A stretch of 64,000 nucleotides of DNA from a virus: IMG/VR virus record IMGVR_UViG_3300031251_000002, positions 32,001-96,000 of that record, one strand, 5' to 3'. Below are positions 9,501 to 43,314 of this stretch, one piece after another. The notes under the pieces are model-generated. The model made no database searches. It saw nothing but the letters and a program-made list of their open reading frames with translations, and was not told the DNA's origin. The translations under genes and the position numbers were made by a program. Numbering within the stretch: the stretch's first letter is position 1; each line of letters opens with the position of its first letter.

Positions 9501-10712
9501 TGGATGGTTGTCTACAACTGGGCGAACGCCTCATCGGTCAACCTTGACCTGTCTCCGATTCTCGCACCGGGTACACCGTACACGGTCAAGAACGCGCTTA
9601 ACCCGCCTCAGGCTCCGATTGCGACAGGCACATACACTGGCGGCACGGTTAACATCTTGACTGGACCGTTCCCGATTGCTCCTGCGATTGGTGGTATCCC
9701 GGTTGCTCCGGGAGCGCCGTTCTCGCTTGGCCCGACGTTCAACGTCTTTGAGATCATCCCGACTGGGGGAAGCAGCGGAACGCCGACCCCGACACCGACT
9801 TCAGCCTTTACTCCAACTCCGACGAGGACGCCGACCCCGGTTCCTCCAACGAATACGCCGTCTCCGACTCCAACGCCCACGGCTACTCGTACACCGACCG
9901 CGACTCCGACAAAGGTTCCTACAGCAACCCCGACACCGGGCGGGCCGTGGCACACGTTCCTGAATTCGCCTGTAGTGTCTGCGCCGATGAACATCTCTGG
10001 CGGCTTCGTGAACGCGCCTACGGCTGAGACGGGTACGGCGGTCTATACGTTCACTACGCCGTACACTTCCACGGTCACCTTCTGGGTCTATGCAAATGAT
10101 GCGCTTGACACCGCAGACAGCTTCTACGCCAAGGTGGACTCTGGTTCTGAGGACATCTGGGATGTGGCTGGTAACGGGCCTTGGGGCAACTTCTTCCGCT
10201 GGGATCAGTCCAACGGACGCAACGGCACTGGCGTTGCTTTGACGCTCAACCCGCGTACGTGGGTAATCTCTGGGGCTGGAACGCACACGCTGATTCTCCG
10301 TGCCCGTGAAGCGGGAACGCAGATCAGTGTCGGCATCTATGTCTCGGCTGACCCGTCCTTCTCGCCGCTTACTCCGACTGCGACACCGACGTTCACTCCG
10401 TCGAACACGCCGACCAAGACGGCCACGCCGACCGCTACTCCGACGAAGACTCCAACTCCGACGAGTACGCCTACCAACACGCCGACTCGGACTAACACCC
10501 CGACGAATACACCGACTCGGACCTACACGCCGACTAACACCCCGACGTTTACTCCGTCGAACACTCCGACTGCGACGAATACCTTTACTCCGTCGAACAC
10601 GCCTACGAACACGCCTACGCCTACTCGTACGGCTACGCCGGGGTCTGTCTGTGTAACCATGACGTTCACTAACACCCCGACGTTTACTCCGACCCCGACA
10701 CCGACTCCATGA
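6591..10712 (+). CDS. Large putative lipoprotein: two tandem right-handed beta-helix (polysaccharide lyase/hydrolase-like) units, CBM-like domain, Pro/Thr linkers
   Basis: Signal MKKLLGLIVLVATMGIAC; duplicated GD.(V/L)..RGG.Y.G...G....PI....Y..GE.V...G unit; DSFYAKVD...GTHTLILRAREAG CBM-like module; long (PT)n tracts. Confidence 0.75.
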   Translation: MPMKKLLGLIVLVATMGIACSARPQPQQASDKLPPLPKPPIALPVGDEAVVTPPVIAAATEALETLPRTTPLPISGRSFAKFSTASAPIGNTYLAAVNGSGNLCTIDAPCSRAYVFGSGTQIHGDDVVYFRGGIYTGLNVQLTASGTLGHPIIFRNYQDGTYLGERVIFRGGAAVQNDVILNNTGSYNWVWGIEFDQLPTNTVPAGSGETKSGRVSWYQGSWPSDIALSDAINSLPQSGAYAARDGQKYINIYCHDVRQCISSWVETTNQEISGMLAINVGWDEEPDPLCGTGGVHPACFTPARGHGFPEYVQNQKNYSGNPPGSVSPATPSTKYTLGSIGLGGFTGCFKLYGSGDQNEEQNWVARQNTTADCGALSTYGLQDNLLFGGGGANDTYTVDQNYEYNCCTFNAGPGGAWGPNDNGIGTCTNVNITNNFVGSPSTFGSIGGTSCHTPTTLTGNSFMGNTVNLNRSLYPSNTYYSSTPAQQFVFVRADPYEPGRCTITVFNYTLASTAPVDLSQCGMGDGTSWQIRDAYRFHGDDNNDTGNVVYAAGTYSAASPILNLSMATGTPVAPANWSTKPAAETWHALTTRGPRFGVFILLPSPVLGNSWYAAPANGGACSTMNGSTSGTGLINCPWELQTALNQTSIHPGDTLWLRGGTYSGTYVSNLLGNTSQPIMVKQYPGETVKLDGGTTYDFGLNICGGYTWFWDFEVFSSSTDRTSDNEGPWPTGLNRSNGVTGSCPPNDSQSGAIKGIKLIHMKIHDMAGGASPFSLFSDFEMYGTTIYNTGWASPTNIGHAHNVYMQNVFGYKLIQDNLFFGGYAEDMQLYGTGAASLNGVTIDANIYADSSTYVVNQGRELTVGGTSDLNNLTVSNNLFYRGPNGDAGTSDWYMGYNSACPGASITGNFVGTVTLWGSNCTAPATVSGNTFMGTFSGHSQWAGNTFLNNVYPTSGFNIFPKPSKYEANRGWMVVYNWANASSVNLDLSPILAPGTPYTVKNALNPPQAPIATGTYTGGTVNILTGPFPIAPAIGGIPVAPGAPFSLGPTFNVFEIIPTGGSSGTPTPTPTSAFTPTPTRTPTPVPPTNTPSPTPTPTATRTPTATPTKVPTATPTPGGPWHTFLNSPVVSAPMNISGGFVNAPTAETGTAVYTFTTPYTSTVTFWVYANDALDTADSFYAKVDSGSEDIWDVAGNGPWGNFFRWDQSNGRNGTGVALTLNPRTWVISGAGTHTLILRAREAGTQISVGIYVSADPSFSPLTPTATPTFTPSNTPTKTATPTATPTKTPTPTSTPTNTPTRTNTPTNTPTRTYTPTNTPTFTPSNTPTATNTFTPSNTPTNTPTPTRTATPGSVCVTMTFTNTPTFTPTPTPTP

Positions 10713-23244: not shown

Positions 23245-26200
23245 ATGAGTAGAGAGAACCTTCGCGGTGTCATCAGCGGTCTGCCGAAGACCCTCATTGA
23301 CACGCCTGTTACCCCAGACGCCCAACCCCTGATGGAAGTCAAACCATCTGACTTCAAGCCTTGCGCTCGCTGCAACGGTACGGGTAAGGTAGACGGCAAG
23401 CAGTGTGTTCTCTGTCAGGCCAAGGGGACGATGCTCCACCGGCCTGTTCCCGAGTCGAAGTCCATTCTCTCTGAGGTCTGTCAGGCATGCGGTGGTCACG
23501 GCGCACAGGGGCTGAAGACCTGTGTAATCTGTCAGGGCGAGCCATTCATGGTTAACTTCACGAACGAAGCTGTGGATCCTCTCTGCTCATGTCGGCATCC
23601 ATTTAGTAAGCATACGAGCCGTCCCGGTGATATCGCTGGTCACGCGGGCGCATGTACTAGCAATCCAACCATCCCACCGAAGCCCGGATTTGGGTGTCGC
23701 TGTCAATACTTTTCCTTGAAGCCGAACGAGCCTGATCCTTGGACTATCGAGAAACAGTTCCATGAAGCAGTTCTTCCTCATAAATATGATGTTAGCTGCC
23801 AGTGCGGTTGGTCGTGTGTTGGAAAGCACAGCGTTCTTAGTGATGCGACCGAGTGTGCCTATCATCATGAGGGATCAGGATCAGGCCACAACTGTGAGAT
23901 TGAAGATAAGGGCACGGGTCTGACCTTCAACTCTATGGGCAGCATCACTGATTACTACGAGTCCGCCGAACCTCCCGATACGCAGCCTGAGTTGACCTGT
24001 AAGAAGTGCGATAAGCGCTTTTCTCCCGATGACGCGGAGTGGAAAGCAGCCCAGCGCGGCGACCCCTTCGTTTGTGCCGAGTGCAAGGCCAAGAAGAAGA
24101 CGAACGAAGCTGTGAATGAGATGGCTGATGCTATCAAGGCCAAGATCAAGGCGCAGCTTCAGGGCAAATACCCTGATGATGTTCTCAAGAAGGCTTTAGC
24201 TAGGACAGAGCGCTGGCAAAAGGCCGCATACGGCAGCAAGGACTGGTCAAGTCATCAGGATGAGTCAGGCTACGACAACCTCGTTGGGACTGTAGAACTG
24301 TACGCTGATGAGATTACCAAAGAGCAGGCTGGCAAGACGGGTCCAACTGCTAACCAGAGCCAGTTTGGTATCTGGTCGCCTAACGTTAGAAACCGCAAGG
24401 GTGAAGCTGAGGGTACGAGCTACAAGGGCTTCTGGCTTGACCAAGACAGTTCAAATCCGCACACAGGCTATCCCGGTGGGATGTGGTACGCGCTGACCAA
24501 GAGTGGCGTACCTGTTACAGACGGTGCTCCGTCCATCGAAGCTCTCAAGAAAGAGATCGACAAGATTGTGGCTCATGGCGCGGATGCGAACCGTTGCCCG
24601 TGTTGCGAGACTGTCGAGAAAGTCCTGTACGGCGTGAAGAACGGCGACGAGGACTGGCAGGAGCAGCTTCTTCTCAGTGGTCCCAACGCGACAGACGCGA
24701 ACATCGAGAAGGTCAAACAGCTAGCGGCCAAGGACGGCTTTGGGAAGTTTCGCGTTGCTTCGATTGACCTGAGCAAGCCGCCCGACTTTACCAAGGCTCT
24801 GCGGAAGAACGAGGCTGATGACCATTGTCGTGTCCGTGGGACCGACGGTGAGACACGGATCTGCGGCGAGAGGAAGCCCTGTCCCCTTCACGACGACGAA
24901 GGCCGGAAGGGCGAAGCCAACTCCTATCGCCACCCCAAGACCGGCCAGTTCGACGCCAAGGAAGGCGACTGCTGGGCGTGTGAGGGATCAGGGACGAAGG
25001 AAGACGGACAGGGCCGCTGCGCGATGTGCGATGGTGGCAAGAAGCTCCCCAACCAAGGTAACAACCTGAAGCGAAACGAGGGGCGGGACTACTCAGCAAA
25101 GGTTACTGGCCCGAGCGCAGTTGCTTTGAAGCGTCTTGCGACAGAAGCCGCGAAGCACCAACTCACATCCGAGCAGCAGGGTGCGGTGAACATGGTTCAG
25201 CGGGATACAGTTTCTATCCTCGCACGGCCCAAGCTCGCTCTAGAGATTAAGATGGTGTTGGATTTCGCTATCCTGCATCAGCCATTGAAGCAGGGCGAAT
25301 CTGACGACCGTTGTGGTTACTGCGGTCACACGCCGGTTGCTCACGATCCGAAGATGAGTCTCGGTTCTGGCCTCTGCACGGGTGGCCTTGGCTGCGACTG
25401 CCGTCAGTTCCAAAAGGGCAGTGCGTGGGTCGAAGCGACCGGTACGGCCATGGTCGCGGGCGCGGAGCCACAGGCTGATGTGGCCTTCAAGGGCGACGAT
25501 CTAAAGGGCGATAGCGATTACGGAGACCGCGACGAGGATTGGTCGATTACCAACACGACCGATCTTCCGCGAAACGAGGGCACAGTGGACGATCTACCAG
25601 TTAACATCAAGCGCATGTGGAAGAACGATGAGTTCCATTGTCCAATCTGTGACCTGAGCATTGGCAAGAACCTGCTGGGTGACATACCTCACGCCCTAGC
25701 GGCTCAGCACCTGTCACAAGCCCACCCCGGCGACAAGGCGTCCATCCTAGCGGGCAACTTTGAGCCAAAGATGGGATCTGCGGCCTCGTACATCAAAATG
25801 GAAGCTGAGGACAAGAAGATCGTTTTCAAGTGTCAGGAGTGCGGCAAGAAGCTCCCCGGTACGGCCCGCAAATGCTCCAAGTGCGGCTCTGAGGACATTG
25901 ATCTAGCTGAAGCCTACATGGACAACACCAAATGCGAGACTTGTGACCACGCCTCACGGTTGCACAACGAAGGCGAAGGCCGCTGCTTTGCCGAAGTGAA
26001 CGATGAGGGCGGTGGGACTGATTGCCGATGCAAGAAGTTCGTTCGCGGTAAGAACGAGGCTGGAGACTACTGCCCGAAGTGCGACCACGCGATGAAGGAT
26101 CATTCGGCCAATGGTTGCGAAGTCTGTGCGGATCACGGGGAGAAGTGCAACGTAGTTGATGAGGCCAACACTTGGTTGATGGCCCGCTCCTCGTCCCAGC

Positions 26201-27807
26201 CGAAGCTGGCCGAGCCGACCTTTACCCACGCGGACGCTATCGAGGCGTGGCAGAACTTCCGCATGCCCGCTGATATTGAGCGCCGCAAGCAGCTACAGAA
26301 GTTCTGGCTCCAGCAGCATCAGGACTTCTCCGTGGGCGGTAGTCAGTTCAACGACCCGGATGCTGAGGCACATCGTTACTACTACAAGCTGTTACTTCAG
26401 ACGTTGGGCGTCAAGGTAGCTGAAGAGGTTACACGTTGGACTGAAACTACGTCCGGCTCGGTGCATAGACCCGGCATTGACACCTATACTGGTTATAGCG
26501 AAATGAACGAAGCCATGCAGTGCTTCTGCGGCCACTCCAAGACGGCGCATGAGGATGGCGTAGGCAAGTGTAGCAGCAGCGGGAACACCTCTGCGGGTGC
26601 GTGTCTCTGCAAGAGCTACAGGAATCGTCCTGTCAAGGAAGCCTTCCCCAACGACGGCCCCGGTGAGGACATGGGCACAGACATGCCTGAGATGGGCGAC
26701 GACGAGTGGACACGCAACGTGATTACTGGCGACGGCACCGGCTCGACAGTCGGCGTCGAGGATAAGAATGAGGCCGAAGAGCTTCGATGGAAGGCTGGAG
26801 ATATCGTGATAATTCGTTCGCATAACAGCGAACCGGGTCACGGTCTTTCCTATTCGGCTGCTGCCATCGTTGCTTTCGAGGATGGCGTTGCTGGCGGATG
26901 GGATGTGTACGATGGAGCGAGCTTGGATGCGCCGACTTTGGAAACGAGCTTCTACGGCTTCAGCGTACTCCGTGTAAGGCGGGGGACGGCGGGGAAGAAT
27001 GAGGCCGAAGAGGTTACTTCTCCTCTCAACACCTATCTCGCTGTTCACAGCAAGAAGGGCAAGATCCAACTCAAGGCTGCGACGACCTATCAAGCTCAGC
27101 AGCTAGCTGCCAAGCAGATGGGTGTCCCTAAGCCGTTTGAGATTTCGATCCACCTGATTGGCAAAGCAGACGGTACACCCGTTCCCGTCCATGTCGAAAG
27201 CACTAATACTACGCCCTATGTTAAGCCGTTACAGGCTTTCTCCTATCGCGTAGGTCAGAAGTACGACTCCGCATACAACTCAAAGCTGGCACAGGCAGTC
27301 GGTCGGATCGTGGTTCCGGCCAGCCATATCTTTGAACCTGATAGCGTGGCGGATGCGAACGACTGCGATCTCTACACGACGATGATCGCCTTGCGGCTGA
27401 AGGAGCTTGGTTACTTACTGCTAAGCCCACAGGACAAGGCGGAGTGGGAGACTCTTTCAACGAAATTCATGCAGGACGTTCAGGCATACGCTGGACACTA
27501 CGATAAGCATGAGTCAATCGCGCCAGACGATGGGACGCGCATCTCGTCTGACTGGGGCGACATCTGGGGCGACCCGACCAAGAGCGGGATTACTCCTCGC
27601 CATGAGACGGCTGAGGCGGTCCTCGCGTCGATCTCCCTGCTCCAGTCTGCTTTTGTAGAGGGTGTTGAGACACTAACCATGTGCCACAACTGCGGTCATG
27701 CGGAGCATTTCCACCTCCTTGGAGCAGCCCTTGGCGCACAAGGGTTTGCTGATAATTCAACAGCTTGTTACGTAGATGGCTGCACTTGCGGGATGTTTAC
27801 AGCATGA
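23245..27807 (+). CDS. 1520-aa multidomain polyprotein of zinc-finger and other micro-domains (putative internal head protein)
   Basis: DnaJ-type CxxCxGxG, C2H2, zinc ribbons and repeated CxCxHxxxH...CxC modules separated by NEA/GEA/NEG/GES-type linkers. Confidence 0.85.
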   Translation: MSRENLRGVISGLPKTLIDTPVTPDAQPLMEVKPSDFKPCARCNGTGKVDGKQCVLCQAKGTMLHRPVPESKSILSEVCQACGGHGAQGLKTCVICQGEPFMVNFTNEAVDPLCSCRHPFSKHTSRPGDIAGHAGACTSNPTIPPKPGFGCRCQYFSLKPNEPDPWTIEKQFHEAVLPHKYDVSCQCGWSCVGKHSVLSDATECAYHHEGSGSGHNCEIEDKGTGLTFNSMGSITDYYESAEPPDTQPELTCKKCDKRFSPDDAEWKAAQRGDPFVCAECKAKKKTNEAVNEMADAIKAKIKAQLQGKYPDDVLKKALARTERWQKAAYGSKDWSSHQDESGYDNLVGTVELYADEITKEQAGKTGPTANQSQFGIWSPNVRNRKGEAEGTSYKGFWLDQDSSNPHTGYPGGMWYALTKSGVPVTDGAPSIEALKKEIDKIVAHGADANRCPCCETVEKVLYGVKNGDEDWQEQLLLSGPNATDANIEKVKQLAAKDGFGKFRVASIDLSKPPDFTKALRKNEADDHCRVRGTDGETRICGERKPCPLHDDEGRKGEANSYRHPKTGQFDAKEGDCWACEGSGTKEDGQGRCAMCDGGKKLPNQGNNLKRNEGRDYSAKVTGPSAVALKRLATEAAKHQLTSEQQGAVNMVQRDTVSILARPKLALEIKMVLDFAILHQPLKQGESDDRCGYCGHTPVAHDPKMSLGSGLCTGGLGCDCRQFQKGSAWVEATGTAMVAGAEPQADVAFKGDDLKGDSDYGDRDEDWSITNTTDLPRNEGTVDDLPVNIKRMWKNDEFHCPICDLSIGKNLLGDIPHALAAQHLSQAHPGDKASILAGNFEPKMGSAASYIKMEAEDKKIVFKCQECGKKLPGTARKCSKCGSEDIDLAEAYMDNTKCETCDHASRLHNEGEGRCFAEVNDEGGGTDCRCKKFVRGKNEAGDYCPKCDHAMKDHSANGCEVCADHGEKCNVVDEANTWLMARSSSQPKLAEPTFTHADAIEAWQNFRMPADIERRKQLQKFWLQQHQDFSVGGSQFNDPDAEAHRYYYKLLLQTLGVKVAEEVTRWTETTSGSVHRPGIDTYTGYSEMNEAMQCFCGHSKTAHEDGVGKCSSSGNTSAGACLCKSYRNRPVKEAFPNDGPGEDMGTDMPEMGDDEWTRNVITGDGTGSTVGVEDKNEAEELRWKAGDIVIIRSHNSEPGHGLSYSAAAIVAFEDGVAGGWDVYDGASLDAPTLETSFYGFSVLRVRRGTAGKNEAEEVTSPLNTYLAVHSKKGKIQLKAATTYQAQQLAAKQMGVPKPFEISIHLIGKADGTPVPVHVESTNTTPYVKPLQAFSYRVGQKYDSAYNSKLAQAVGRIVVPASHIFEPDSVADANDCDLYTTMIALRLKELGYLLLSPQDKAEWETLSTKFMQDVQAYAGHYDKHESIAPDDGTRISSDWGDIWGDPTKSGITPRHETAEAVLASISLLQSAFVEGVETLTMCHNCGHAEHFHLLGAALGAQGFADNSTACYVDGCTCGMFTA

Positions 27808-29930
27808 AGCTGGTGGAAGCATTTTTCGTAGGGACCAAGCCCGATGGATCCAAGGAAGTTTTCCAAGGCTCCCGGAACCCGACGACAGAAACGCATCCCC
27901 GGTTTAAGTCCATCGCTGGCCCGTTCAGCGAAGAAGAGGCTAAGAAAATGGCTGGCGACGAAAAGAAAGAAGCCCTCAAGCGAGAACTGATGGGAGAGCT
28001 TTCAGATGGTTACGTATCCTGTACCAAGTGTGGTGTGGTTCCCGAGAAAAGCTGTCCGCACAGTGCGCCCTTTAAGAGCGTGACAAAAAAGAACGAGTCC
28101 TCTGGCGTAGTGATCACCGCGCCCGGTGCTGGTGACACTCCTGAGACTCTCCTGAAGGCGATCCCGCGCACGATGGATGCTTCTGCGTTCATCAGCCACA
28201 TCGGTGATCTCGTCGTTGCTGGCAAGGGTGCTGCGCCGACTGACATGAAGTTGACTGGCGAGCCAATTACTCCGAGCGACGTTACCATGATGGCTCAGTG
28301 CAAGATTGGCGAAGCTGAGAATGTCTTTGACAAACATGCACTGAAGATTGCTAAAGACACCCTGAAGATTGCTAAAGACACCCTGAAGATGCATCCAGCG
28401 GTGGTAGGCGTCATGGGCGGCACCACGCACGAAGGTGCCCATCAGACTATCAAGCGCATCACTGGCAAAGACCAGTCCTGCACCCAAGACGGCTGTCCTT
28501 ACAAGCAGACCGGGAAGACCGAATCCCGCGAACTGCGCGAAGGCTCCAGCATCTGCAACTGTGGGGACTCTGAGAACGACCACTACAAGGATCCGCCGTC
28601 TTCTTGCAGCCGCTGTGCTTGCGACTCGTTTGAGTCCAACAGCCTCCCGGATAAGGCGAAGGCTCCTGCTGCAAAGGACAAACCAGTGGACAAGAAGGAA
28701 TCCCTCAAGCGCGAGCTTTTGGGTGAGGATAACTTTGTAACATGCGTTGGGTGCGGCAAAGAAACTCTGTCGCGTGACGCTGCTAATCTTAATGACCGTG
28801 GAAAGTGGGCGAGTCCGCCAGAGGGAAAGCCACATTGCCGGTCTTGCGATATGTATGGGCCACCTGACAATGGTGGTAAGTCGTCTCCCGGTGTCGCTGG
28901 TTATACGAGCCGGGAAGCCGGGTCGGGACCGGCTAAAAAGAATGAGTCGGATGCCTACGACCGCGATTTCACCTGCAAGATGTGCGGTAAGACTGACGAC
29001 GGCCCGGAGTTCGTAGTTGCTGGCAAGCACCCGGTTTGCAAGGCATGCAAAGAGAAGAAGGATCCAGACAAGCCGATTAAGCTGCGCGGGGAATCCACAA
29101 GTAACGATAAAAACTGCCAAGCGTGTGGTGCTTCCGGTGCGTCCCCAAGGGATAGAGGCAACGGTCGAGTTCTCAACCTCTGCTCAACCTGCACTTCTAA
29201 GAAGGCCGAAGGCGCGGTCTTTGCATCCAATGCTAGCCTACATAAGAAGTACCCCGGTCCTGCGGCTGACGCTCAGTCTGACAAAGCTCGAAAGTCCGTA
29301 CCGAACACAGTTTGCAATTTCTGCACTAACCCGGTGACGCCACCGGCAACCGTTTGTGACACTTGCTATGACAAGTTCAACAAGAAGAAGGAATCTAAGG
29401 AGAAACCTATGAAGACCAAGCCAGTTGGCGAGCAGTTTCATGCTCTGGCCAACGCTGCCATCAAGATGATGGTTAGCATTCAGGAGTCCCCGCGAGCGGG
29501 GCGGGTGACCCCGCTACTGGCGCGGTTGGACAAGGTAGCGAACAAGGCAGCGGATGCTGTCGCCGCGAAGATGATGGGGGAGAACCAAGGTTACGAGTTC
29601 CCCGCGCTCTTCAAGGAGTTGAAGGAGATCCACGCCAAGCTCAGGACCGCAATGGGCGAAGGCTGGCACATGTATCCGGCTCTCGGGCTGGGCAATGACT
29701 TCAACATGGGTGGCGATGGTCGCGAGATGTCGCCAGAGCTTTCTGGTGTTGATCCGGTCGAGGGCATGGTTGCTGCGGCAGTCCCGCTCGACGCTGGTGC
29801 CAACAAGATGGAGAACGTTAACAAGTACGTTGACAGTCTCCTGAAGGAAGACGATGACGAGAAGTGCGATACCTGTGGTGGTGTTGACAAGCACGACAGG
29901 AACAAGCACGACGCGGATTTCAAAGGCTAA
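27804..29930 (+). CDS. Second Cys-rich multidomain polyprotein (putative internal head protein)
   Basis: ATGA-coupled start MKLVEA; linkers KKEALKRELMGE, KKNES (x2), KKESLKRELLGE, LRGES, KKES; many CxxC pairs. Confidence 0.85.
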   Translation: MKLVEAFFVGTKPDGSKEVFQGSRNPTTETHPRFKSIAGPFSEEEAKKMAGDEKKEALKRELMGELSDGYVSCTKCGVVPEKSCPHSAPFKSVTKKNESSGVVITAPGAGDTPETLLKAIPRTMDASAFISHIGDLVVAGKGAAPTDMKLTGEPITPSDVTMMAQCKIGEAENVFDKHALKIAKDTLKIAKDTLKMHPAVVGVMGGTTHEGAHQTIKRITGKDQSCTQDGCPYKQTGKTESRELREGSSICNCGDSENDHYKDPPSSCSRCACDSFESNSLPDKAKAPAAKDKPVDKKESLKRELLGEDNFVTCVGCGKETLSRDAANLNDRGKWASPPEGKPHCRSCDMYGPPDNGGKSSPGVAGYTSREAGSGPAKKNESDAYDRDFTCKMCGKTDDGPEFVVAGKHPVCKACKEKKDPDKPIKLRGESTSNDKNCQACGASGASPRDRGNGRVLNLCSTCTSKKAEGAVFASNASLHKKYPGPAADAQSDKARKSVPNTVCNFCTNPVTPPATVCDTCYDKFNKKKESKEKPMKTKPVGEQFHALANAAIKMMVSIQESPRAGRVTPLLARLDKVANKAADAVAAKMMGENQGYEFPALFKELKEIHAKLRTAMGEGWHMYPALGLGNDFNMGGDGREMSPELSGVDPVEGMVAAAVPLDAGANKMENVNKYVDSLLKEDDDEKCDTCGGVDKHDRNKHDADFKG
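28341..28390 (+). repeat. Perfect 21-bp tandem duplication (LKIAKDT x2)
   Basis: CTGAAGATTGCTAAAGACACC twice plus partial third copy. Confidence 0.95.
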
Positions 29931-33284: not shown

Positions 33285-33749
33285 ATGCCGGGTTATAACA
33301 GGTATAAGCGCAGTGGAGACTGCGTGTTGTGTGGAACATGGCGACAGTCGTTGCATCGGGACCATATCGTTCCTAAGTTCAAAGGCGGTTCCGATGAGCC
33401 AAGCAACTGGCAGTTTATCTGTGCGAATTGTCATGAGGACAAGACGCGCCTTGACTTGAAGGGGAGAAAGCGACCGCCCCGTTCCAAGGAAACCAAGGAA
33501 AAAATTCGTGCTGCTGTCTCTAAACCGCGCAACCTGTCACCGGAACAGCGCAAGAGTATTTCTGAGCGAATGTCAAAACTTCACACCGGTAATCAGTACA
33601 ACGTCGGGAAGAAAAATGGGCCAATGATGCTTTCGCCGGAAGAGCGAGCTAGGCGGGCTGAACATTTACGTAACGTGGCTAAGACGATCAATATAGGCCG
33701 TAAGCGCCCCGATGTGGCAGAACGGAATCGACAGCGTGTTACCCGTTAG
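33285..33749 (+). CDS. HNH homing endonuclease with NUMOD3-like DNA-binding tail
   Basis: CVLCG...HRDHIVPKFKGGSDEPSNWQFICANCHEDKT; SKETKEKI, SPEQRKSIS repeats. Confidence 0.9.
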   Translation: MPGYNRYKRSGDCVLCGTWRQSLHRDHIVPKFKGGSDEPSNWQFICANCHEDKTRLDLKGRKRPPRSKETKEKIRAAVSKPRNLSPEQRKSISERMSKLHTGNQYNVGKKNGPMMLSPEERARRAEHLRNVAKTINIGRKRPDVAERNRQRVTR

Positions 33750-34497
33750 TACGTTTGTTGACACCCTGTTGTTGGAAGGGGTGTTCGATCAAGGGATTTT
33801 GAAAGCCATCTTCATGGCTGGTGGTGCTGGGTCTGGCAAGTCGGCTGTCGCGGCTGACTTGTTTGACATCCCAGACTCTAACGATGTCCGGTATGTCAGC
33901 TTTAGCTCTGGCGGGCTGAAGCTGGTCAACCCGGACAGAGCGTTCGTTCACGGTCTGATCAAGGCGGGGTACGATCCCAAGAAGTTAGCTGACATCCCGG
34001 ACGAGGAGTTTGATCGAGTCATCGGTGGCGACCACCCCGGTCCCGGCACGATTCGGGCGATTGCCAAGCAGCTTGCGGTCAAGGTCTATGACATGAACAA
34101 GGATGGGCGTCTTGGCATGCTGATCGACGGGACCGGCGGCAACCTTCCGAAGATTCAGGGCCAGAAAGAAGACCTTGAGAGCATCGGTTACGACACGTAC
34201 ATGGTGTTTGTTAACACCCGCCTTGAGGTCGCCTTGGCCCGGAACAAGAAACGCTCGCGGGTAGTCAAGGACGAGGTTGTTATCAGTACGTGGCATGAGG
34301 TGCAAGCGAACCTAGAAACTTATCGTTCAATGTTTGGCAGTCACTTCACGATCATTGAAAATTCGGCTGATCAGCGTAACATCACAGCAGCGGCAAACAG
34401 CGCTGTTCGTGGGTTCATGTCGCAGCCGGTTCAGAATCCAATAGGGCAAGAATGGATACAGAACATGACGAAGATTCGCCAGCGGGCGGAGAAATAG
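33712..34497 (+). CDS. P-loop kinase (zeta-toxin/AAA_33-like); start uncertain (33712 or 33736)
   Basis: KAIFMAGGAGSGKS, LVNPD, LIDGTG, GYDTYMVFVNT.LEVALARN..R.R. Confidence 0.85.
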   Translation: MWQNGIDSVLPVSTFVDTLLLEGVFDQGILKAIFMAGGAGSGKSAVAADLFDIPDSNDVRYVSFSSGGLKLVNPDRAFVHGLIKAGYDPKKLADIPDEEFDRVIGGDHPGPGTIRAIAKQLAVKVYDMNKDGRLGMLIDGTGGNLPKIQGQKEDLESIGYDTYMVFVNTRLEVALARNKKRSRVVKDEVVISTWHEVQANLETYRSMFGSHFTIIENSADQRNITAAANSAVRGFMSQPVQNPIGQEWIQNMTKIRQRAEK

Positions 34498-36011: not shown

Positions 36012-36062
36012 TTCAAGGGGTTTTGGGGAAACTCACGCCTCTCTTGGATTTTTAAGGTGGCT

Positions 36063-36836
36063 ATGTCTAATTTCGACGGCTTCTACGAACACATCCTCGT
36101 TCTGCCGGAACAGGAGTGGAGAAACCAGCTTCGTGAGAACGATGCGCTGGTAGGCCGTCTGCGCGATCACGGTGCCGCTGTCACACCTGACGGTGTTCTT
36201 GTAGTCGAGGCTGAAAGACTTTACCGGGTCACTCTCCTACTACGCGAACACAACCTTACGTGGCGCTTCGATCCTGCCTTTGCCGTCGAGACTGCCTTGA
36301 CCGAGAGCGACCCGGTTACCTTGATGAACAGGATGCTTTACGATCCAGAAGAACCCTATAGCTGGGAAGATCGAAAGCCTCTTAAGTGGTATCCAGAAGG
36401 CGAAGAGATCGAAGACGCCATGGACGACTACGATAAGTCCCTCCCTAACCACGCGGATCAGACGCTTCAGATGCCGCAGGATGGCGTGAAGGCGTCTAAC
36501 GTCGCAGCCAAGGCATTGGATCATGGCTGGCAGGATCCCTCTCTCGCTGCGGTCGGTGAGGGCAAGGAAGGCGCGAAGAAAATCAAGAACGAGGCCGGGA
36601 CCGAATCCACTGATCCGGACTTCAACCCGTGCCCTGCGTACATGGAAGGCTTCTGCCGCGTAGACGGACGAGTATGCCTGTACAACAAAGAAACCTTTGA
36701 GGACTGTCCGAAGTTCAACACTGCTCTGATCATTACCAAAGGCAACATGGCCATCCCTCCGGGTTCGGAGGACGATGAAGATTACGGCGGCGGCGCTTTT
36801 GGCGACAAAGACGATCCGCTAGCGGGTGAGAACTAG
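36063..36836 (+). CDS. Acidic hypothetical protein, probably head-associated
   Basis: Linker-like LTES, VGEG, IKNEA; small Cys cluster. Confidence 0.6.
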   Translation: MSNFDGFYEHILVLPEQEWRNQLRENDALVGRLRDHGAAVTPDGVLVVEAERLYRVTLLLREHNLTWRFDPAFAVETALTESDPVTLMNRMLYDPEEPYSWEDRKPLKWYPEGEEIEDAMDDYDKSLPNHADQTLQMPQDGVKASNVAAKALDHGWQDPSLAAVGEGKEGAKKIKNEAGTESTDPDFNPCPAYMEGFCRVDGRVCLYNKETFEDCPKFNTALIITKGNMAIPPGSEDDEDYGGGAFGDKDDPLAGEN

Positions 36837-38857: not shown

Positions 38858-39487
38858 TTGAACTTCAAGACAGCACTGGCGGTTCTGGTGGTGGGTCTGG
38901 CCTCTGCTTACGCGGAGGCCCAGACTGCCACGCCTACACCGTCTAAGACGCCAACGCCGACCAATACATTCACGGCGACGAACACTTTCACGCCGTCGAA
39001 TACACCGACCGTTACGGCTCGTAGGCCCATCTTCCCGTACACGCCTTCGATCACCCCGGTTCTCTCCGCTACGCCTACGCCAACTGTTACGAATACGGCA
39101 ACAGTGACGAATACACCAACCAAGACATTTACTCCGACTTTGACTTGGACGGCTCGTCCTCAGTTCCCGGCGCTGACCTTTACGAACACGCCGACAGCTT
39201 CCAAGACGCCAACGGTTACATTGACTGTCACACCGACAGCAACGTTTACGAAGACGTATACCCCGCTCCCGGTGTATACGCCAACCGTTCGTCAGCCACT
39301 CCCATCGTGGACCCCAAGCAGCACGGCTACCAACACCCGGACGTTCACGAACACACGGACGAGTACACCGACATTTACGCCGACCACGACCGCGACCCGG
39401 ACCGGGACGCCAACGAAGCGTCCGTCCCCGACGATCACTAAGACGGCAACCCCGACGAATACACCAACGAAGACCCCAACACCATAG
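38858..39487 (+). CDS. Secreted mucin-like Thr/Pro protein
   Basis: Signal peptide ending AEA-Q; remainder almost entirely TPT repeats. Confidence 0.7.
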
Positions 39488-39924: not shown

Positions 39925-41889
39925 ATGAGCGTCCTCCGCGATACCGCGATCTTCTCTGGTTTCAAACTTACCGAAGGCGTTACTAACGCTACGACCGGGC
40001 GTAAGCCATTGGTTGTTGAAGGCGTTTTTCAACGTGCAGATGTTCTCAACGCTAATCACCGGGTTTACCCGAAGGCTCTTTGGGAGAAGGTTCTAACGAA
40101 CTCTTCGCTCAAGGAGGCTCTTAACAACCGCCGCATGTTCGGTGAAGTCGATCACCCAGCGGATTGGCGTATGGCGCTTGCTCGTACATCACATGTCATC
40201 ACTGACCTGAAGATGGACGAGAGTGGCAACATCATCGGTAAGGCAGAAATCCTCCCGACCCCGACTGGCCTTGTTCTAGAAGCGATTCTACGGGCTGGCT
40301 GTGAGGTTGGCATTTCTTCGCGTGGAACCGGCTCAACATCCTCGACCAACGAAGGTCATGAGGTTGTTGGTGAAGACTACCAGCTAGAGACCTTTGATTT
40401 CGTAGCAACACCCTCGACACCGGGGGCGTATCCGAAAATGGTTATGGAGACTATGGAACGCGCCCAAGCGATGGAAGCGCGGATCATGGATAGTTTATTT
40501 AAGTCTGTTACCCCTGCGAAGAAGGAGGAGGTTAATGAGATGAGTCTTGATGGCTACCGTGCCTTGGAGCGCGAAGCCTCAGAACTGATCCGGATCAAGG
40601 TCAAAGGCATTGATGCTGCGACCCGTACTCTCGTTCTCAATAAGATCGAAGAGACCATGGGCAAGGTGATCAAGGCTGGTGAGGCGGATAAGACCGTCGC
40701 CGTCCTGTCCGAGTCAATGCTGAAGTCGCTTGAGAAGAAGCGTTCCAAGCTATCGCCGGTTACGGAAGAGGATGTTCTACCACAGGAAACCAACGTTCCT
40801 GATTACTCTAGTGCGGCTGCGGACAAGCTAGAGGATGACGGTGACGATGATGCTGATGACAAGGAAGCCGACGACGAGAAGTCGTCCAAAGAGGAAAATC
40901 GCGCAATGAAAAAGTTCAATCGTCTCTTTACTGAAGACGATGACATGCCCGAGTTCCTTAAGAAGAAGGCTGACAAGGCTGACGGCAAAGACAGCGATGA
41001 CAAGGACGAGGCTGAAGAGGTGAGCAGCGCGGACTCCAATTCTCCGATGGAGGATGAGGAGACGGCGGGTGAAGTTACTTCTGACATCAACGCCGAGATC
41101 CCGAACGTTTCCGCTGAGTCGATTGACCGCCGCGTGTCCGCATTCCTTAGGGAAGAGATGCCAGACAACTTCAAGAAGGATGACGACAAGGACAGCGATG
41201 ACGACGACGACAAGGACGAAGACGCTGCTTCTGAGTATTCACCTGAGAAGCCTGTCAACTCATCGGATGACATCGTGACCGCTACCGAGTCGGATATCCG
41301 TGGCTTGATGAAGGTTCTTTCCAAGAACCCGGCCAAGCTGGAGTCCTTCATCCGTGGAACCATCAAGATGGTTAACGCGGAGCGCAAGGCTCGTCGCGTA
41401 TCGGAAGCCAAGGCCATCAAGTTTGGCAAGGTTGCCGAGGCCGTGATCAAACGCCACAAGAAGGCGTCCAAGGTCAACGAGGCCGCTGGTCCGCTAGCTG
41501 CCAAGTACAAGTTCGTTTGCGAGGCTGTGGCCGAGCTACAGCGTCGTTATTTCTCTCTCAAGAACAAGTTCCTCATCTCAGAGGCCCTGATCGAAGCGGG
41601 CGTTCCGAGCAAGGAGCGGGCGGAATGGGTTCAGACTCTCTCGACCCTGACCACACGCGAGCAGCTTGTCCGTGGTATTCAGAAGGTAAAAGCGCTCTAC
41701 ACCGAGGAGGACGAGAAGCCATCCGACGACAAGAAGGATGACGAGCAGTCTGACGAGAAGAGCGAGTCTACAAAACAGCCGAAACCGGGCGCAGAGAATC
41801 TCTCTGAGTCCAAAGACAAGCACGACATCTTCATTACCGAAGGTGCCGCAATTTTTGCAAACGCCCGCTCAAAGCGTGGCTTGCGCTAA
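39925..41889 (+). CDS. T4 gp21-like prohead protease fused to an acidic/coiled-coil scaffold region
   Basis: VEGVFQRADV.N.NHRVYP, FGEVDHP, SHVI..L, GKAEILPTP.G, VGISSRGTGS, FDFVATPSTPGAY; Asp/Glu/Lys-rich C-terminal two thirds. Confidence 0.93.
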   Translation: MSVLRDTAIFSGFKLTEGVTNATTGRKPLVVEGVFQRADVLNANHRVYPKALWEKVLTNSSLKEALNNRRMFGEVDHPADWRMALARTSHVITDLKMDESGNIIGKAEILPTPTGLVLEAILRAGCEVGISSRGTGSTSSTNEGHEVVGEDYQLETFDFVATPSTPGAYPKMVMETMERAQAMEARIMDSLFKSVTPAKKEEVNEMSLDGYRALEREASELIRIKVKGIDAATRTLVLNKIEETMGKVIKAGEADKTVAVLSESMLKSLEKKRSKLSPVTEEDVLPQETNVPDYSSAAADKLEDDGDDDADDKEADDEKSSKEENRAMKKFNRLFTEDDDMPEFLKKKADKADGKDSDDKDEAEEVSSADSNSPMEDEETAGEVTSDINAEIPNVSAESIDRRVSAFLREEMPDNFKKDDDKDSDDDDDKDEDAASEYSPEKPVNSSDDIVTATESDIRGLMKVLSKNPAKLESFIRGTIKMVNAERKARRVSEAKAIKFGKVAEAVIKRHKKASKVNEAAGPLAAKYKFVCEAVAELQRRYFSLKNKFLISEALIEAGVPSKERAEWVQTLSTLTTREQLVRGIQKVKALYTEEDEKPSDDKKDDEQSDEKSESTKQPKPGAENLSESKDKHDIFITEGAAIFANARSKRGLR

Positions 41890-41904: not shown

Positions 41905-43314
41905 ATGGCCGACCTTTTTGAATCAGTCCTAAGCAAAGGTAAGCACCTTGCCGAGAACGACTGGCGGGCTTACTTTGCTGCACAGGACGGCACCCTAGCT
42001 CTAGATGAGTCTAGCCGTGCGTTGACTGCCTATCTCCTAGAGGTAGAAAAGCAGTACATCAAGAATCTTGATGAGGACACGCGAATTGCCTCAATCGGAT
42101 CTTTCGAGAAGTACGTCTTCCCGATCATCCGTGCGGTATTCCCGAACCTCGTCGCAACCGAGCTAGTCTCGGTTCAGCCCATGCAGGGACCAACCTCGTT
42201 GGTGTTCTACATGGACTTCAAGGCTGGATCCAAGAAGGGTTCAGTCAACCTCGGTGACACGCTTATCTCGTCCCGTACGGGTCAGCAGGCGTCCACCAGC
42301 TACTCAGGCGAGCTAGTTGACGCTGAGCAGGCTTACACGGGCGACGGCGCGACGGTTACCTTCACGGGTGCCAACCTGTCGTACTTCCCGCTTCGTCCTC
42401 TGTCGATCACGGTCAGCACCCTCGTTGGCGCTGTCCTGAAGACGGCTGTTGACGATGGCAATGGCAACCTCGTTGGTGCTGGTTACACGACCGGCGCTGG
42501 CGAAAACACCATCAACTACTCCACTGGCGCAATCAACCTCAAGTTCTCGGTTGCTCCGGATTCCAACGCGATCACCGTTGCGTACAACTACGCTTCGGAA
42601 GCTTCACTACAGGTTCCGCAGATTGATGTCAGCATCACCTCGGTCCCGGTGACGGCTCGTCCGCGTAAGCTCCGTGCCCGTTGGTCAGTTGAAGCCGCTG
42701 CCCAGCTTCGCGCCGTTCACGGTGCGGACGTTGAGACAGAAGTAACAACGGCCATGGCCGAAGAGATCCGTTTCGACATCGACCGCGAGATCATCAACGA
42801 TCTCACCACGGTTGCTGCCGCTCCGGACAACTCGACCCACGATTTCTGGTTCTACACCGCCGCGCCGACCGGCATCTCGTTCTTTGAACACAAGATGACG
42901 ATCCTCGATACGTTCATCGCTCACTCCAACTACATCTTCAGCCAGACGCGCCGTGCAACTGGTAACTGGATCGTAGCTGGCGTCAACGTTTGCTCGATCA
43001 TCGAGTCGCTCCCAGTGTTCAAGGCGATCTCGGTAACCGGTTCGGGCGTTGTGTACATGGGCGACCTCATGGGCCGTTGGAGGGTCTACAAGGATCCTTA
43101 CATGGCTACCGACTCGTTCCTCGTTGGTCACCGTGGTGCGTCGTACATGGACACGGGCTACATCTACGCTCCGTGGATCCCGCTGTACACGACTCCTACC
43201 GTGTACCTCGATGACTTTGTTGGCCGTAAGGGTCTCCTGACTGAGTACGCGAAGAAGATCGTCAACGGTCTCTTCTACACTCAGGGCCACATCGTTCACG
43301 GTTCACACCCGTAA
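41905..43314 (+). CDS. Major capsid protein (T4 gp23-like)
   Basis: FPIIRAVFPNL.A.ELVSVQPM.GP.SLVFY, VTARPRKLRARWS.EAA..L.A.HG.D.E, EI..DIDREII..L, GNWIV, GYIYAPWIPL. Confidence 0.96.
   Translation: MADLFESVLSKGKHLAENDWRAYFAAQDGTLALDESSRALTAYLLEVEKQYIKNLDEDTRIASIGSFEKYVFPIIRAVFPNLVATELVSVQPMQGPTSLVFYMDFKAGSKKGSVNLGDTLISSRTGQQASTSYSGELVDAEQAYTGDGATVTFTGANLSYFPLRPLSITVSTLVGAVLKTAVDDGNGNLVGAGYTTGAGENTINYSTGAINLKFSVAPDSNAITVAYNYASEASLQVPQIDVSITSVPVTARPRKLRARWSVEAAAQLRAVHGADVETEVTTAMAEEIRFDIDREIINDLTTVAAAPDNSTHDFWFYTAAPTGISFFEHKMTILDTFIAHSNYIFSQTRRATGNWIVAGVNVCSIIESLPVFKAISVTGSGVVYMGDLMGRWRVYKDPYMATDSFLVGHRGASYMDTGYIYAPWIPLYTTPTVYLDDFVGRKGLLTEYAKKIVNGLFYTQGHIVHGSHP

Follow-up and report, generated by a model that had tools for sequence, protein, structure and literature searches.

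The window analysed here is a stretch of 64,000 nucleotides from a 166-kb phage genome from rhizosphere soil, which belongs to a distant relative of T4. Within it lies an open reading frame (Table 1) that encodes one chain of 1520 amino acids, P0001, in which a leader is followed by about 17 small modules of 35-170 amino acids. The modules are mostly unrelated, and many of them contain CxxC or C-x-C-x-H zinc knuckles; zinc ribbons, Cys/His knuckles, an SH3-like barrel and a beta-beta-alpha-beta domain are all represented. Flexible Glu-Ala/Gly/Ser junctions, 10 of which have the form x-N-E-A/G, connect the modules. A search of P0001 against Pfam and PHROG gave no family above threshold. The leader, with its T4-type L-x-E end, is a candidate for capsid targeting. 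Downstream of the P0001 gene are those for a head-maturation protease (assigned to Peptidase_S77 with E = 2e-23) and the major capsid protein. The phage genome encodes a RecA/UvsX-type recombinase; an integrase was looked for in the same genome and none was found.

Table 1. Features of the polyprotein locus and its surroundings, with positions numbered from the start of the window.
Feature	Position	Strand	Basis
Bead-string polyprotein gene P0001	23245..27807	+	ORF, 1520 aa
N-terminal leader, aa 1-31, end L-M-E	23245..23337	+	conserved in P0002 alignment
Linker repeat T1 (TNEAV), end of shared module A	23560..23574	+	
Linker repeat T2 (TNEAV), 15 nt identical to T1	24100..24114	+	
Module D, aa 455-521, beta-beta-alpha-beta mini-domain	24607..24807	+	homology; AF2
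Linker repeat K1 (KNEA+G), left edge of 208-aa block missing from P0002	24805..24817	+	
G-E-A junction E557|A558, start of shared module C (elsewhere in P0002)	24910..24918	+	
Non-linker 15-nt repeat GGCAAGAAGCTCCCC (GKKLP), within zinc ribbon; other copy 25843-25857	25036..25050	+	
Linker repeat R1 (RNEG, 12 nt), end of module C	25071..25082	+	
V-E-A junction E730|A731, right edge of 208-aa block missing from P0002	25429..25437	+	
Linker repeat R2 (RNEG), end of shared module E	25569..25580	+	
A-E-A junction E889|A890, left edge of 84-aa block missing from P0002	25906..25914	+	
Linker repeat K2 (KNEA+G), start of module B (near N-terminus in P0002)	26050..26062	+	
D-E-A junction E973|A974, right edge of 84-aa block missing from P0002	26158..26166	+	
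11-nt repeat GAAGAGGTTAC (EEVT); other copy 27007-27017	26422..26432	+	
Linker repeat E1 (KNEAEE, 18 nt; rarer Asn codon AAT)	26764..26781	+	
77-codon unit, SH3-like beta-barrel module, aa 1180-1249	26782..26994	+	homology; AF2
Linker repeat E2 (KNEAEE), 18 nt identical to E1	26995..27012	+	
H-E-S junction E1423|S1424, start of shared C-terminal module H	27508..27516	+	
Second bead-string gene, K-K-(N)-E-S and G-E-S/A junctions (listed from TTG 27765; first ATG 27804)	27804..29930	+	
Head-maturation protease, Pfam Peptidase_S77 (T4 gp21 family), long C-terminal extension	39925..41889	+	
Major capsid protein, distant T4 gp23 type	41905..43314	+	

Four pairs of repeated linker-coding DNA had been reported in a first-pass annotation of the window, and all four were confirmed, each lying inside the P0001 reading frame. 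The copies of AAGAATGAGGCCGAAGAG (KNEAEE; E1 and E2) are spaced by 231 nt, or 77 codons, and those of ACGAACGAAGCTGTG (TNEAV; T1 and T2) by 540 nt, or 180 codons; the remaining pairs are AAGAACGAGGCTG (KNEA+G; K1 and K2) and GCGAAACGAGGG ((K/P)RNEG; R1 and R2). Each of the four sequences has two copies in the window and no further one in the rest of the 166-kb genome, the repeat begins at a codon boundary in three of the four pairs, and the match extends beyond the N-E-A/G core (T..V, K..EE). The reported identity at synonymous positions holds in all four repeats, which are exact; in the RNEG pair the third position of the Gly codon differs. The peptide motif NE[AG] occurs 10 times in P0001 against 0.54 expected from composition, an 18-fold enrichment, and 19 times in the ~46,000 residues of the remaining proteome.

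The sole relative of P0001 that was found, P0002, was compared with it as protein. Eight homology blocks are common to the two chains, two of them relocated (P0001 929-974 and 557-610), module-sized clean indels occur at P0001 522-729, P0001 889-972, P0002 36-103 and P0002 615-681, and the stretch between blocks G and H is replaced throughout. The domain content is thus not fixed, in keeping with the annotation's view of the enclosed domains as unrelated and exchangeable, and its expectation that breakpoints would fall at linkers is also upheld: 9 of the 14 block ends in P0001 (p ~1e-4) and 9 of the 15 in P0002 (p ~2e-4) are no more than 2 residues away from a Glu-Ala/Gly/Ser junction, and 3 of 14 from a strict N-E-A/G site (p = 0.016), with the caveat that BLAST block ends may be drawn to E-A residues common to both proteins. 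A 24-aa indel with respect to P0002 has its left edge at the listed copy of GAAGAGGTTAC. From these alignments P0001 is very probably a modular chain with breakpoints at its junctions, and its content evolves quickly as whole modules are gained, lost and relocated in frame, with breaks at the junctions. Breakpoints at domain borders are also expected from selection alone after random illegitimate events. In contigs from four other samples the gene is unchanged, and these contained no deletion variants or new joints.

Two of the modules correspond to whole stand-alone small genes, in which the stop codon stands where the P0001 linker begins. The 77-codon unit has end-to-end homology with stand-alone viral proteins of 65-75 aa; its AF2 model has pLDDT >94, with weak fold matches to SH3, and both KNEAEE copies fall within the low-pLDDT flanks of the domain. 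Homologues of module D comprise dozens of stand-alone proteins of 60-90 aa as well as modules of other polyproteins, and in its AF2 model (pLDDT >90 for aa 457-508) the linkers likewise lie outside the folded domain. These units speak for the cassette-like exchange proposed in the annotation. Of the linker pairs, that of KNEAEE alone has a lineage-specific module neatly between its copies. The same modules are found in other phage bead-strings between different linkers (AKGG, x-N-P), which means that linker homology cannot be a requirement for their transfer between lineages. One module-sharing bead-string, P0064 of a T4-like phage, is encoded with a T4-type portal on one side and an S77 protease with gp23 on the other.

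The exact repeats of 12-18 nt are probably copies of linker DNA related by common descent, as opposed to independent solutions for one peptide, and they would then have been left behind when short-homology or illegitimate recombination took place at linkers, whether by insertion, copying or short-patch conversion. An origin of the linker DNA identity in recombination or copying at linkers is a tentative reading of the sequence that we would hold at slightly less than even strength, while the best explanation of the whole, a cleaved cargo chain carrying linker-level recombination footprints, is held with middling confidence. If two linker copies were later to recombine, the modules between them would be lost or duplicated precisely in frame, with a single linker left intact. 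At 12-18 nt the repeats are short if homologous exchange is to be efficient, and only the KNEAEE pair matches the simple picture of an insert with a duplicated linker; the interpretation of the linker repeats as domain-exchange points is partly supported.

Common descent could also operate without crossover at linkers, if modules move by random illegitimate events of which only the products that preserve domains and cut sites survive, and if identical linkers arise separately from templated copying or gene conversion as protease preference drifts. This is a rather unlikely account of the repeats, since the KNEAEE pair exactly brackets a module that is missing from P0002 and is a free gene elsewhere, since three of the four identical pairs join neighbouring sites (chance 0.035), and since no known mechanism copies patches of 12-18 nt between unrelated flanks at such a rate. 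It does accommodate, as does recombination at linkers, the differences between linkers at homologous positions in P0001 and P0002 (TNEAV and TKQEG; RNEGT and RQEDK), from which it follows that the N-E-A/G form spread or was lost after divergence, and which indicate concerted linker change within the gene. Favourable to it as well are the K and R pairs, which do not bound lineage-specific inserts and enclose modules in the same order in P0002, the lineage-specific linkers with which other phages carry the same modules, and the occurrence of non-linkers in two of the five DNA-identical peptide pairs, GKKLP and ADAN (24580/27349).

Selection and chance together would account for the repeats if a single protease or structural need fixes the linker peptide, the linker DNA having no role in recombination, and if the silent-site identity reflects codon bias, codon context and the choice of pairs after the fact. 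This combination is unlikely. In 2000 synonymous-codon shuffles, with the protein and the codon counts of the gene held constant, the mean number of repeats of at least 12 nt was 2.3 against 7 observed (7 is reached in 24 of 2000, p = 0.012), and the 3 observed repeats of at least 15 nt were reached in 7 of 2000 (p = 0.0035), a moderate whole-gene excess, which counts in favour of selection and chance. The individual linker pairs are identical in 0.6%, 3.1%, 8.3% and 10.6% of shuffles, and all four are identical at once in 0 of 2000. An empirical null, in which isolated identical peptide pairs in this gene are compared with those genome-wide, gives DNA identity for 2 of 6 pairs of 5 residues against 2 of 927 (Fisher p = 2e-4) and for 1 of 1 pair of 6 residues against 0 of 75 (Fisher p = 0.013). 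AAG, AAC and GAG are preferred codons, and across the genome pairs of identical 4-residue peptides have identical DNA 1.6 times more often than independent codon choice predicts; against this, both KNEAEE copies contain the minority codon AAT (9 of the 55 Asn codons of the gene), both copies of the R pair share the rare CGA, and the four KNEA sites show two codon versions and not one preferred version. Codon bias alone, which the annotation had named as the competing source of the repeats, does not have the power to explain the silent-site identity of the linker pairs.

The repeated peptides RKGEA, GKNEA, AEEVT and QLAAK, the first three of which are linker-like, do not have identical DNA in P0001. 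No repeat of at least 15 nt was found in eight other long phage genes except in one Pro/Thr low-complexity gene. Linker DNA repeats were sought in the adjacent bead-string gene and in the polyproteins P0078 and P0064 and none were found, and the absence of the effect from that gene and from three other polyproteins speaks for selection and chance. The effect is seen again in an unrelated polyprotein with AKGG linkers, L005, in which 4 of 4 repeats of at least 12 nt sit at linkers, 2 repeats have at least 17 nt (p = 0.001) and a 14-nt repeat flanks module D, and which provides a partial replication.

Among known systems, the annotation had likened the array to an integron. The likeness is one of analogy, in that both have ordered exchangeable units with a repeated site at each boundary; integron identity is excluded by the lack of an IntI integrase and of attC-type imperfect inverted repeats, and the P0001 units are not separate genes. 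In the PeSL cassettes of T4-type phages (Arbiol et al. 2010, PMC2839356; Comeau et al. 2014, PMC4122927) short repeated DNA motifs also flank variable modules; when adjacent copies recombine, modules are removed, added or swapped, and mini-circles may be released. This is the known mechanism closest to the crossover at linkers proposed in the annotation, but PeSLs, as intergenic promoter-terminator elements, shuffle whole genes and greatly exceed 12-18 nt in length, whereas the P0001 repeats are coding and in frame within one ORF. The glycine-rich motifs of the gp38 adhesin and tail-fibre motifs (Trojet et al. 2011, PMC3157838) are likewise short conserved motifs inside an ORF, lying between hypervariable segments with exchanges in or near them; they form the structural core of one domain, while the P0001 linkers separate unrelated, independently folding domains and are probably protease sites.

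The T4 internal proteins IPI-III and Alt are targeted to the capsid, where the prohead protease gp21 (S77) processes them, and enter the host together with the DNA by injection. P0001 may be a capsid-cargo polyprotein of comparable function, loaded into the prohead, where the head protease would cleave it behind Glu to give many small proteins that would be ejected along with the DNA. This phage shares with T4 an S77 protease and a gp23-type capsid protein; in addition, the candidate leader of P0001 terminates in L-x-E, its junctions place Glu at P1 and a small residue at P1', and its modules are small proteins of the expected cargo kind. A difference is that the T4 proteins are separate genes each with a leader while P0001 fuses many units in a 1520-aa frame. 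Proteases of the S77/gp21 type in T4, phiKZ and SPN3US cut C-terminal to Glu (PMC5694885), and the S77 protease, as the candidate enzyme, somewhat probably cuts the P0001 junctions. At P3 the N-E-A/G linkers carry T, K or R, residues that are polar or basic and unlike the hydrophobic P3 of the T4 L/I-x-E sites or the small P3 of the phiKZ-type A/S/G-x-E sites, and canonical L-x-E sites occur elsewhere in the phage; the S77 protease may therefore not cut these linkers.

An uncleaved protein, either a long multi-zinc-finger chain for DNA/RNA binding or scaffolding or an intact polyvalent protein with N-E-A/G as a flexible spacer, would suit a P3 outside the known S77-type motifs and the possible full-length transfer of polyvalent proteins (PMC5512222), but is very unlikely given that the enriched Glu-small-residue motif lies exactly between independently folding modules, that modules occur as free small proteins, that the gene stands upstream of the protease and capsid genes as P0064 does, and that the conserved leader ends in L-M-E. 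The polyvalent proteins of phages and conjugative elements (Iyer et al. 2017, PMC5512222) also combine many unrelated domains in one polypeptide of a mobile element, with joint delivery and proteolytic release proposed. They differ in having an embedded peptidase, where the modules of P0001 would be freed in trans, at a regular linker, by the head protease, and in their signature domains, where P0001 consists of mini-domains and no LPD, MPTase or other polyvalent signature domain was found in it. Proteins that have modules in common with P0001 carry Pfam LPD domains or adjoin LPD proteins.

The four exact linker repeats that the first-pass annotation had reported were recovered where it had placed them, each occurring exactly twice, all in the single ORF that encodes the bead-string polyprotein P0001, and none elsewhere in the 166,450-bp virus record that contains the window. 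The repeats are direct, in frame and 12-18 nt long, three of the four start at a codon boundary, and the peptides that they encode are KNEAEE, TNEAV, KNEA plus one base, and (K/P)RNEG. These are repeated DNA motifs flanking variable modules, as in the PeSL and GRM systems of T4-type phages, and three of the four exact pairs occupy neighbouring sites (chance 0.035). The linker core N-E-[A/G] is found ten times in P0001 (asparagine at 107, 287, 522, 611, 777, 908, 937, 1088, 1175 and 1252), compared with an expectation of 0.54 from composition, while the remaining approximately 46,000 residues of the proteome contain 19 occurrences, which is about the number predicted by composition. The peptide KNEAG occurs again in another head-region gene, where it has 11 nt (AAGAACGAGGC) in common with the polyprotein linkers and differs from them at the third positions of the Ala and Gly codons.

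The identity expected at silent sites from codon usage, which the first-pass annotation had proposed to compute, was evaluated with two null models, and the observed identity exceeds both. The first consists of 2000 shuffles of synonymous codons within the P0001 gene, which preserve the protein and its codon counts. Seven repeats of at least 12 nt are observed against a shuffle mean of 2.3, a count reached by 24 of the 2000 shuffles, and the three repeats of at least 15 nt are matched in 7 of 2000. The individual linker pairs are identical in 0.6%, 3.1%, 8.3% and 10.6% of shuffles, and all four at once in none (0/2000). Repeats of at least 15 nt are absent from eight other long genes of the phage, the exception being a Pro/Thr low-complexity gene. 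Exact DNA repeats of 16-24 nt (TNTPTFTP and similar) are abundant in the Pro/Thr-rich tail of a 1373-residue protein, and ORF 38858-39487 is likewise P/T-rich in composition.

The second null, which absorbs codon-context effects, consists of isolated identical peptides in unrelated contexts of the same genome. Genome-wide, 2.1% of four-residue pairs, 2 of 927 five-residue pairs and none of 75 six-residue pairs are identical in DNA, while the corresponding counts within the polyprotein are 2 of 17, 2 of 6 (p 2e-4) and 1 of 1 (p 0.013). The DNA identity of the linkers beyond codon usage is therefore real. Further apparent signs of shared descent are that members of a pair also have residues outside the N-E-A/G core in common, that the minority Asn codon AAT stands in both KNEAEE copies and the rare Arg codon CGA in both copies of the RNEG repeat, that two codon versions are used among the four K-N-E-A sites, each at two of them, and that identical pairs tend to be neighbours. 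The members of each identical pair resemble copies of a single stretch of DNA. Two non-linker pairs are also identical in DNA (GKKLP, inside two zinc ribbons, and ADAN). DNA identity is lacking in four repeated peptides, of which RKGEA, GKNEA and AEEVT are linker-like.

Whether modules have moved was assessed by comparison with P0002, a 1414-residue protein from an ENA assembly and the only relative found by word-index searches among 5.8 billion clustered proteins. No relative was found in 50,697 phage records by tblastn of P0001 and blastn of the capsid region, or in IMG/VR by pattern scans based on the capsid protein and on P0001 and P0002, and a metagenome scan gave single-module matches only. 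By BLASTP and global alignment the two proteins have eight blocks in common, at 45-80% identity, which differ in order and content. Residues 929-974 of P0001 correspond to 50-95 of P0002, ahead of the first shared module there, and residues 557-610 correspond to 203-255, which in P0002 precede module D (682-748) rather than follow it. Blocks 522-729 (208 aa) and 889-972 (84 aa) are confined to P0001, and blocks 36-103 and 615-681 to P0002; between shared blocks G and H the sequence is wholly different, the P0001 side including the 77-codon unit that lies between the KNEAEE copies.

Typical block edges, marked here by a slash, are K/NEA...WV/EA, LA/EA...VD/EA and KH/ES. Block ends are no more than two residues away from a Glu-Ala/Gly/Ser dipeptide in 9 of 14 cases in P0001 (p ~1e-4) and 9 of 15 in P0002 (p ~2e-4), relative to random positions, and at a strict N-E-A/G in 3 of 14 (p 0.016), although in this protein-level comparison E-A residues in common can pull alignment ends toward themselves. 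The earlier interpretation of domain exchange at linkers is partly borne out: content is not fixed, and relocations and module-sized indels tend to break at junctions of Glu with a small residue; at the protein level, the two sequences show what appears to be module exchange at linkers. The linkers at homologous positions differ (TNEAV/TKQEG, RK-NEAD/KK-ESKG, RNEGT/RQEDK and KNEAG/KKEATG), so the N-E-A/G form spread or was lost after the two proteins diverged. The change is a concerted one, for which a preference of the protease or copying from linker to linker could be responsible, alone or together.

The modules themselves are small and largely without annotation. Searches of P0001 against Pfam and PHROGs gave no family above threshold, with weak sub-threshold zinc-ribbon matches only, and six modules and their free homologues likewise had no match; P0001 contains 17 CxxC pairs and several C-x-C-x-H knuckles. 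A "shorter" search returned nothing, and exhaustive HMMER searches later returned many small homologues of two modules, which are members of large families whose stand-alone proteins are 60-90 residues long. Free proteins that match the 77-codon unit from end to end have their initiator Met 1-5 residues before the first conserved Trp, and the free genes of module D have their stop codon exactly where N-E-A starts in P0001. Folded with alignments, both modules are predicted to be compact domains with floppy flanks. Residues 457-508 of module D are modelled as a beta-beta-alpha-beta unit (pLDDT >90), for which a PDB fold search gave no clear structural match and the ESM Atlas no usable one. Residues 1180-1249 are modelled as a beta barrel (pLDDT >94), with weak SH3-type matches in the PDB fold search and sub-threshold leads only in the ESM Atlas, and both KNEAEE copies fall within its low-confidence predicted flanks.

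The same modules are found, with different linkers, in other long bead-string proteins of phages (see table). In the AKGG-type gene of locus L005 all four repeats of at least 12 nt lie at linkers, two of them at least 17 nt long (p 0.001), and a 14-nt repeat flanks module D. In four other genes some linkers have repeats of 13-16 nt that are not clearly significant, and the genes of P0078 and P0064 have no DNA repeats at their linkers. The effect of linker-DNA identity is real in the P0001 gene and is not universal. The gene upstream in L005 encodes a HEWGH zinc-metallopeptidase motif, which suggests a different processing enzyme for the AKGG linker class. Neighbours of P0064 carry inteins (an RNR alpha and an 894-residue protein with an HNH domain). 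Module D also makes up the C terminus of P0130 (2592 aa), a giant methylase/helicase-like protein that carries an intein-like insert, an arrangement that looks like the classical polyvalent-protein architecture.

Features of the polyprotein region and of related loci (window positions unless a locus is named)
Feature	Position	Remarks
P0001 gene	23245-27807 (+)	1520 aa
TNEAV pair	23560, 24100
KNEA(+G) pair	24805, 26050
RNEG pair	25071, 25569
KNEAEE pair	26764, 26995
Module D	24607-24807	aa 455-521
77-codon unit	26782-26994	aa 1180-1249
Second bead-string gene	27804-29930	directly downstream, overlaps end of first
Zeta-toxin-like P-loop kinase	33712-34497	22-residue leader ending L-L-E/G (aa 20-22)
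KNEAG in head-region gene	36585-36599	ORF 36057-36836
Peptidase_S77 (T4 gp21-type) prohead protease	39925-41889	PF03420, E 2.3e-23
Major capsid protein, distant gp23-type	41905-43314	tblastn matches are T4-like phages
Pro/Thr-rich tail	9783-10712	ORF 6591-10712
Free module D genes, examples	L002 1301-1510; L003 6038-6241
Bead-string polyproteins, AT-rich phages	L005 3-1541 and 1578-3851; L006, L007, L008	[A/E]-K-G-G linker every 50-100 residues
P0069, P0070, P0078, P0082		linker [A/E]-K-G-G
P0117		linker x-N-P
P0064, 2574 aa	L009 10001-17725	linker hydrophobic-x-E-S; between T4-type portal and S77 protease plus gp23

The source of the window is, from its gene content, a phage, and like the phages that have T4-type internal proteins it encodes an S77 (gp21-type) prohead protease. 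Proteases of this family from T4, phiKZ and SPN3US cut after Glu, which occupies P1, and the P3 residue is L or I in T4 and A, S or G in giant phages (PMC5694885). All ten N-E-A/G sites have Glu at P1 and Ala or Gly at P1', and the junctions lie between folded domains. The head protease would cut P0001 after the linker Glu, and P0001 may be packaged into the capsid. The P3 residues of these sites (T, K, R, H or M) are unlike those of the family rule, which counts against S77 cutting there. The leader of P0001 (aa 1-31), which is conserved in P0002, ends in L-M-E and does not resemble the T4 capsid-targeting sequence. Canonical L-x-E sites occur elsewhere in the phage, for example in the leader of the zeta-like kinase, a canonical T4-type cut site which suggests that the kinase may be a further packaged protein.

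If P0001 is cut and packaged in this manner, one late gene would fill the capsid with small proteins, in an assortment that can change, which reach the host before gene expression, and its modules would be likely to act in counter-defence or takeover. This assortment could be reshuffled module by module with the reading frame and processing sites intact, many uncharacterised mini-domains, including the two families that also exist as free phage genes, would become candidate injected effectors, and regular Glu junctions adjoining an S77 protease would provide a rule for recognizing cargo genes in uncultured phages.

Exchange between linker copies would delete the modules between them or duplicate them, in either case in frame, and crossovers may fall inside the linker DNA. 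The linkers might then serve twice, as head-protease cut sites in the protein and as short recombination sites in the DNA, allowing in-frame trading of cargo within a population by general recombination only; we regard this combined reading as tentative and rather doubtful. Linker-to-linker exchange would under this reading possibly proceed via excised module circles like the PeSL mini-circles, and the gene would be a coding-frame cassette array. The genome encodes a RecA/UvsX-type recombinase. Since linkers differ between lineages that have the same modules, linker homology could serve exchange only within a lineage.

Duplication of one linker around an inserted module, as in target-site duplication, fits the KNEAEE pair, since P0002 lacks the enclosed module and the module is free elsewhere, and possibly the TNEAV pair; it does not account for all four, because the modules inside the KNEA(+G) and RNEG pairs follow one another in P0002 as they do in P0001. 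The sequence is present as Logan contigs in 15 rhizosphere metagenome runs. No deletion joints were found in the contigs of four other runs (X3-X6), which are identical to the window and, as contigs, drop rare variants; one X3 contig spans both KNEAEE copies. Single low-depth contigs show an in-frame CCT insertion behind 26685, in the acidic spacer of block G (X5), and a C>T change at 23265 (X6).

Integron cassettes are moved by an IntI-type tyrosine recombinase and are each bounded by attC sites, imperfect inverted repeats of 57-141 bp. The integron-like array envisaged by the first-pass annotation is not an integron, since the P0001 repeats are 12-18 nt in-frame direct repeats and no tyrosine integrase (PF00589) was found in the 166-kb genome by a search that was positive in 14 of 14 control genomes. 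Linkers as internal ribosome-binding or start sites can be dismissed: although six of the ten sites contain GAGG, none of these is followed by a start codon, and GAGG is missing from the TNEAV pair.

No published description of head-protease polyproteins of this kind was found in the literature, where the closest concepts are the T4 internal proteins and the polyvalent proteins, phage and plasmid polypeptides with 2 to 15 or more unrelated domains (PMC5512222). With its approximately 17 modules, two of them folded separately, and its piecemeal sharing with other proteins, P0001 combines at least two unrelated domains in one polypeptide, but none of the polyvalent signature domains (LPD families, MPTase, ArdC-N and others) was found in it or its modules by Pfam; LPD11 (in P0070) and LPD1 (in the L008 locus) occur only in distant proteins or loci with module D. 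For the DNA-level idea the closest concept is PeSL-mediated shuffling with mini-circles (PMC2839356), and exchange at conserved motifs has been described inside gp38 (PMC3157838). If true, the proposed reading would extend both concepts, the T4 internal proteins and the shuffling of modules at short conserved motifs, into one system.

The second bead-string gene of the phage has no DNA repeats at its linkers. It encodes zinc knuckles and junctions of the forms K-K-(N)-E-S, G-E-S and G-E-A, and it contains a 29-nt tandem duplication that encodes LKIAKDT twice (~28341-28390).
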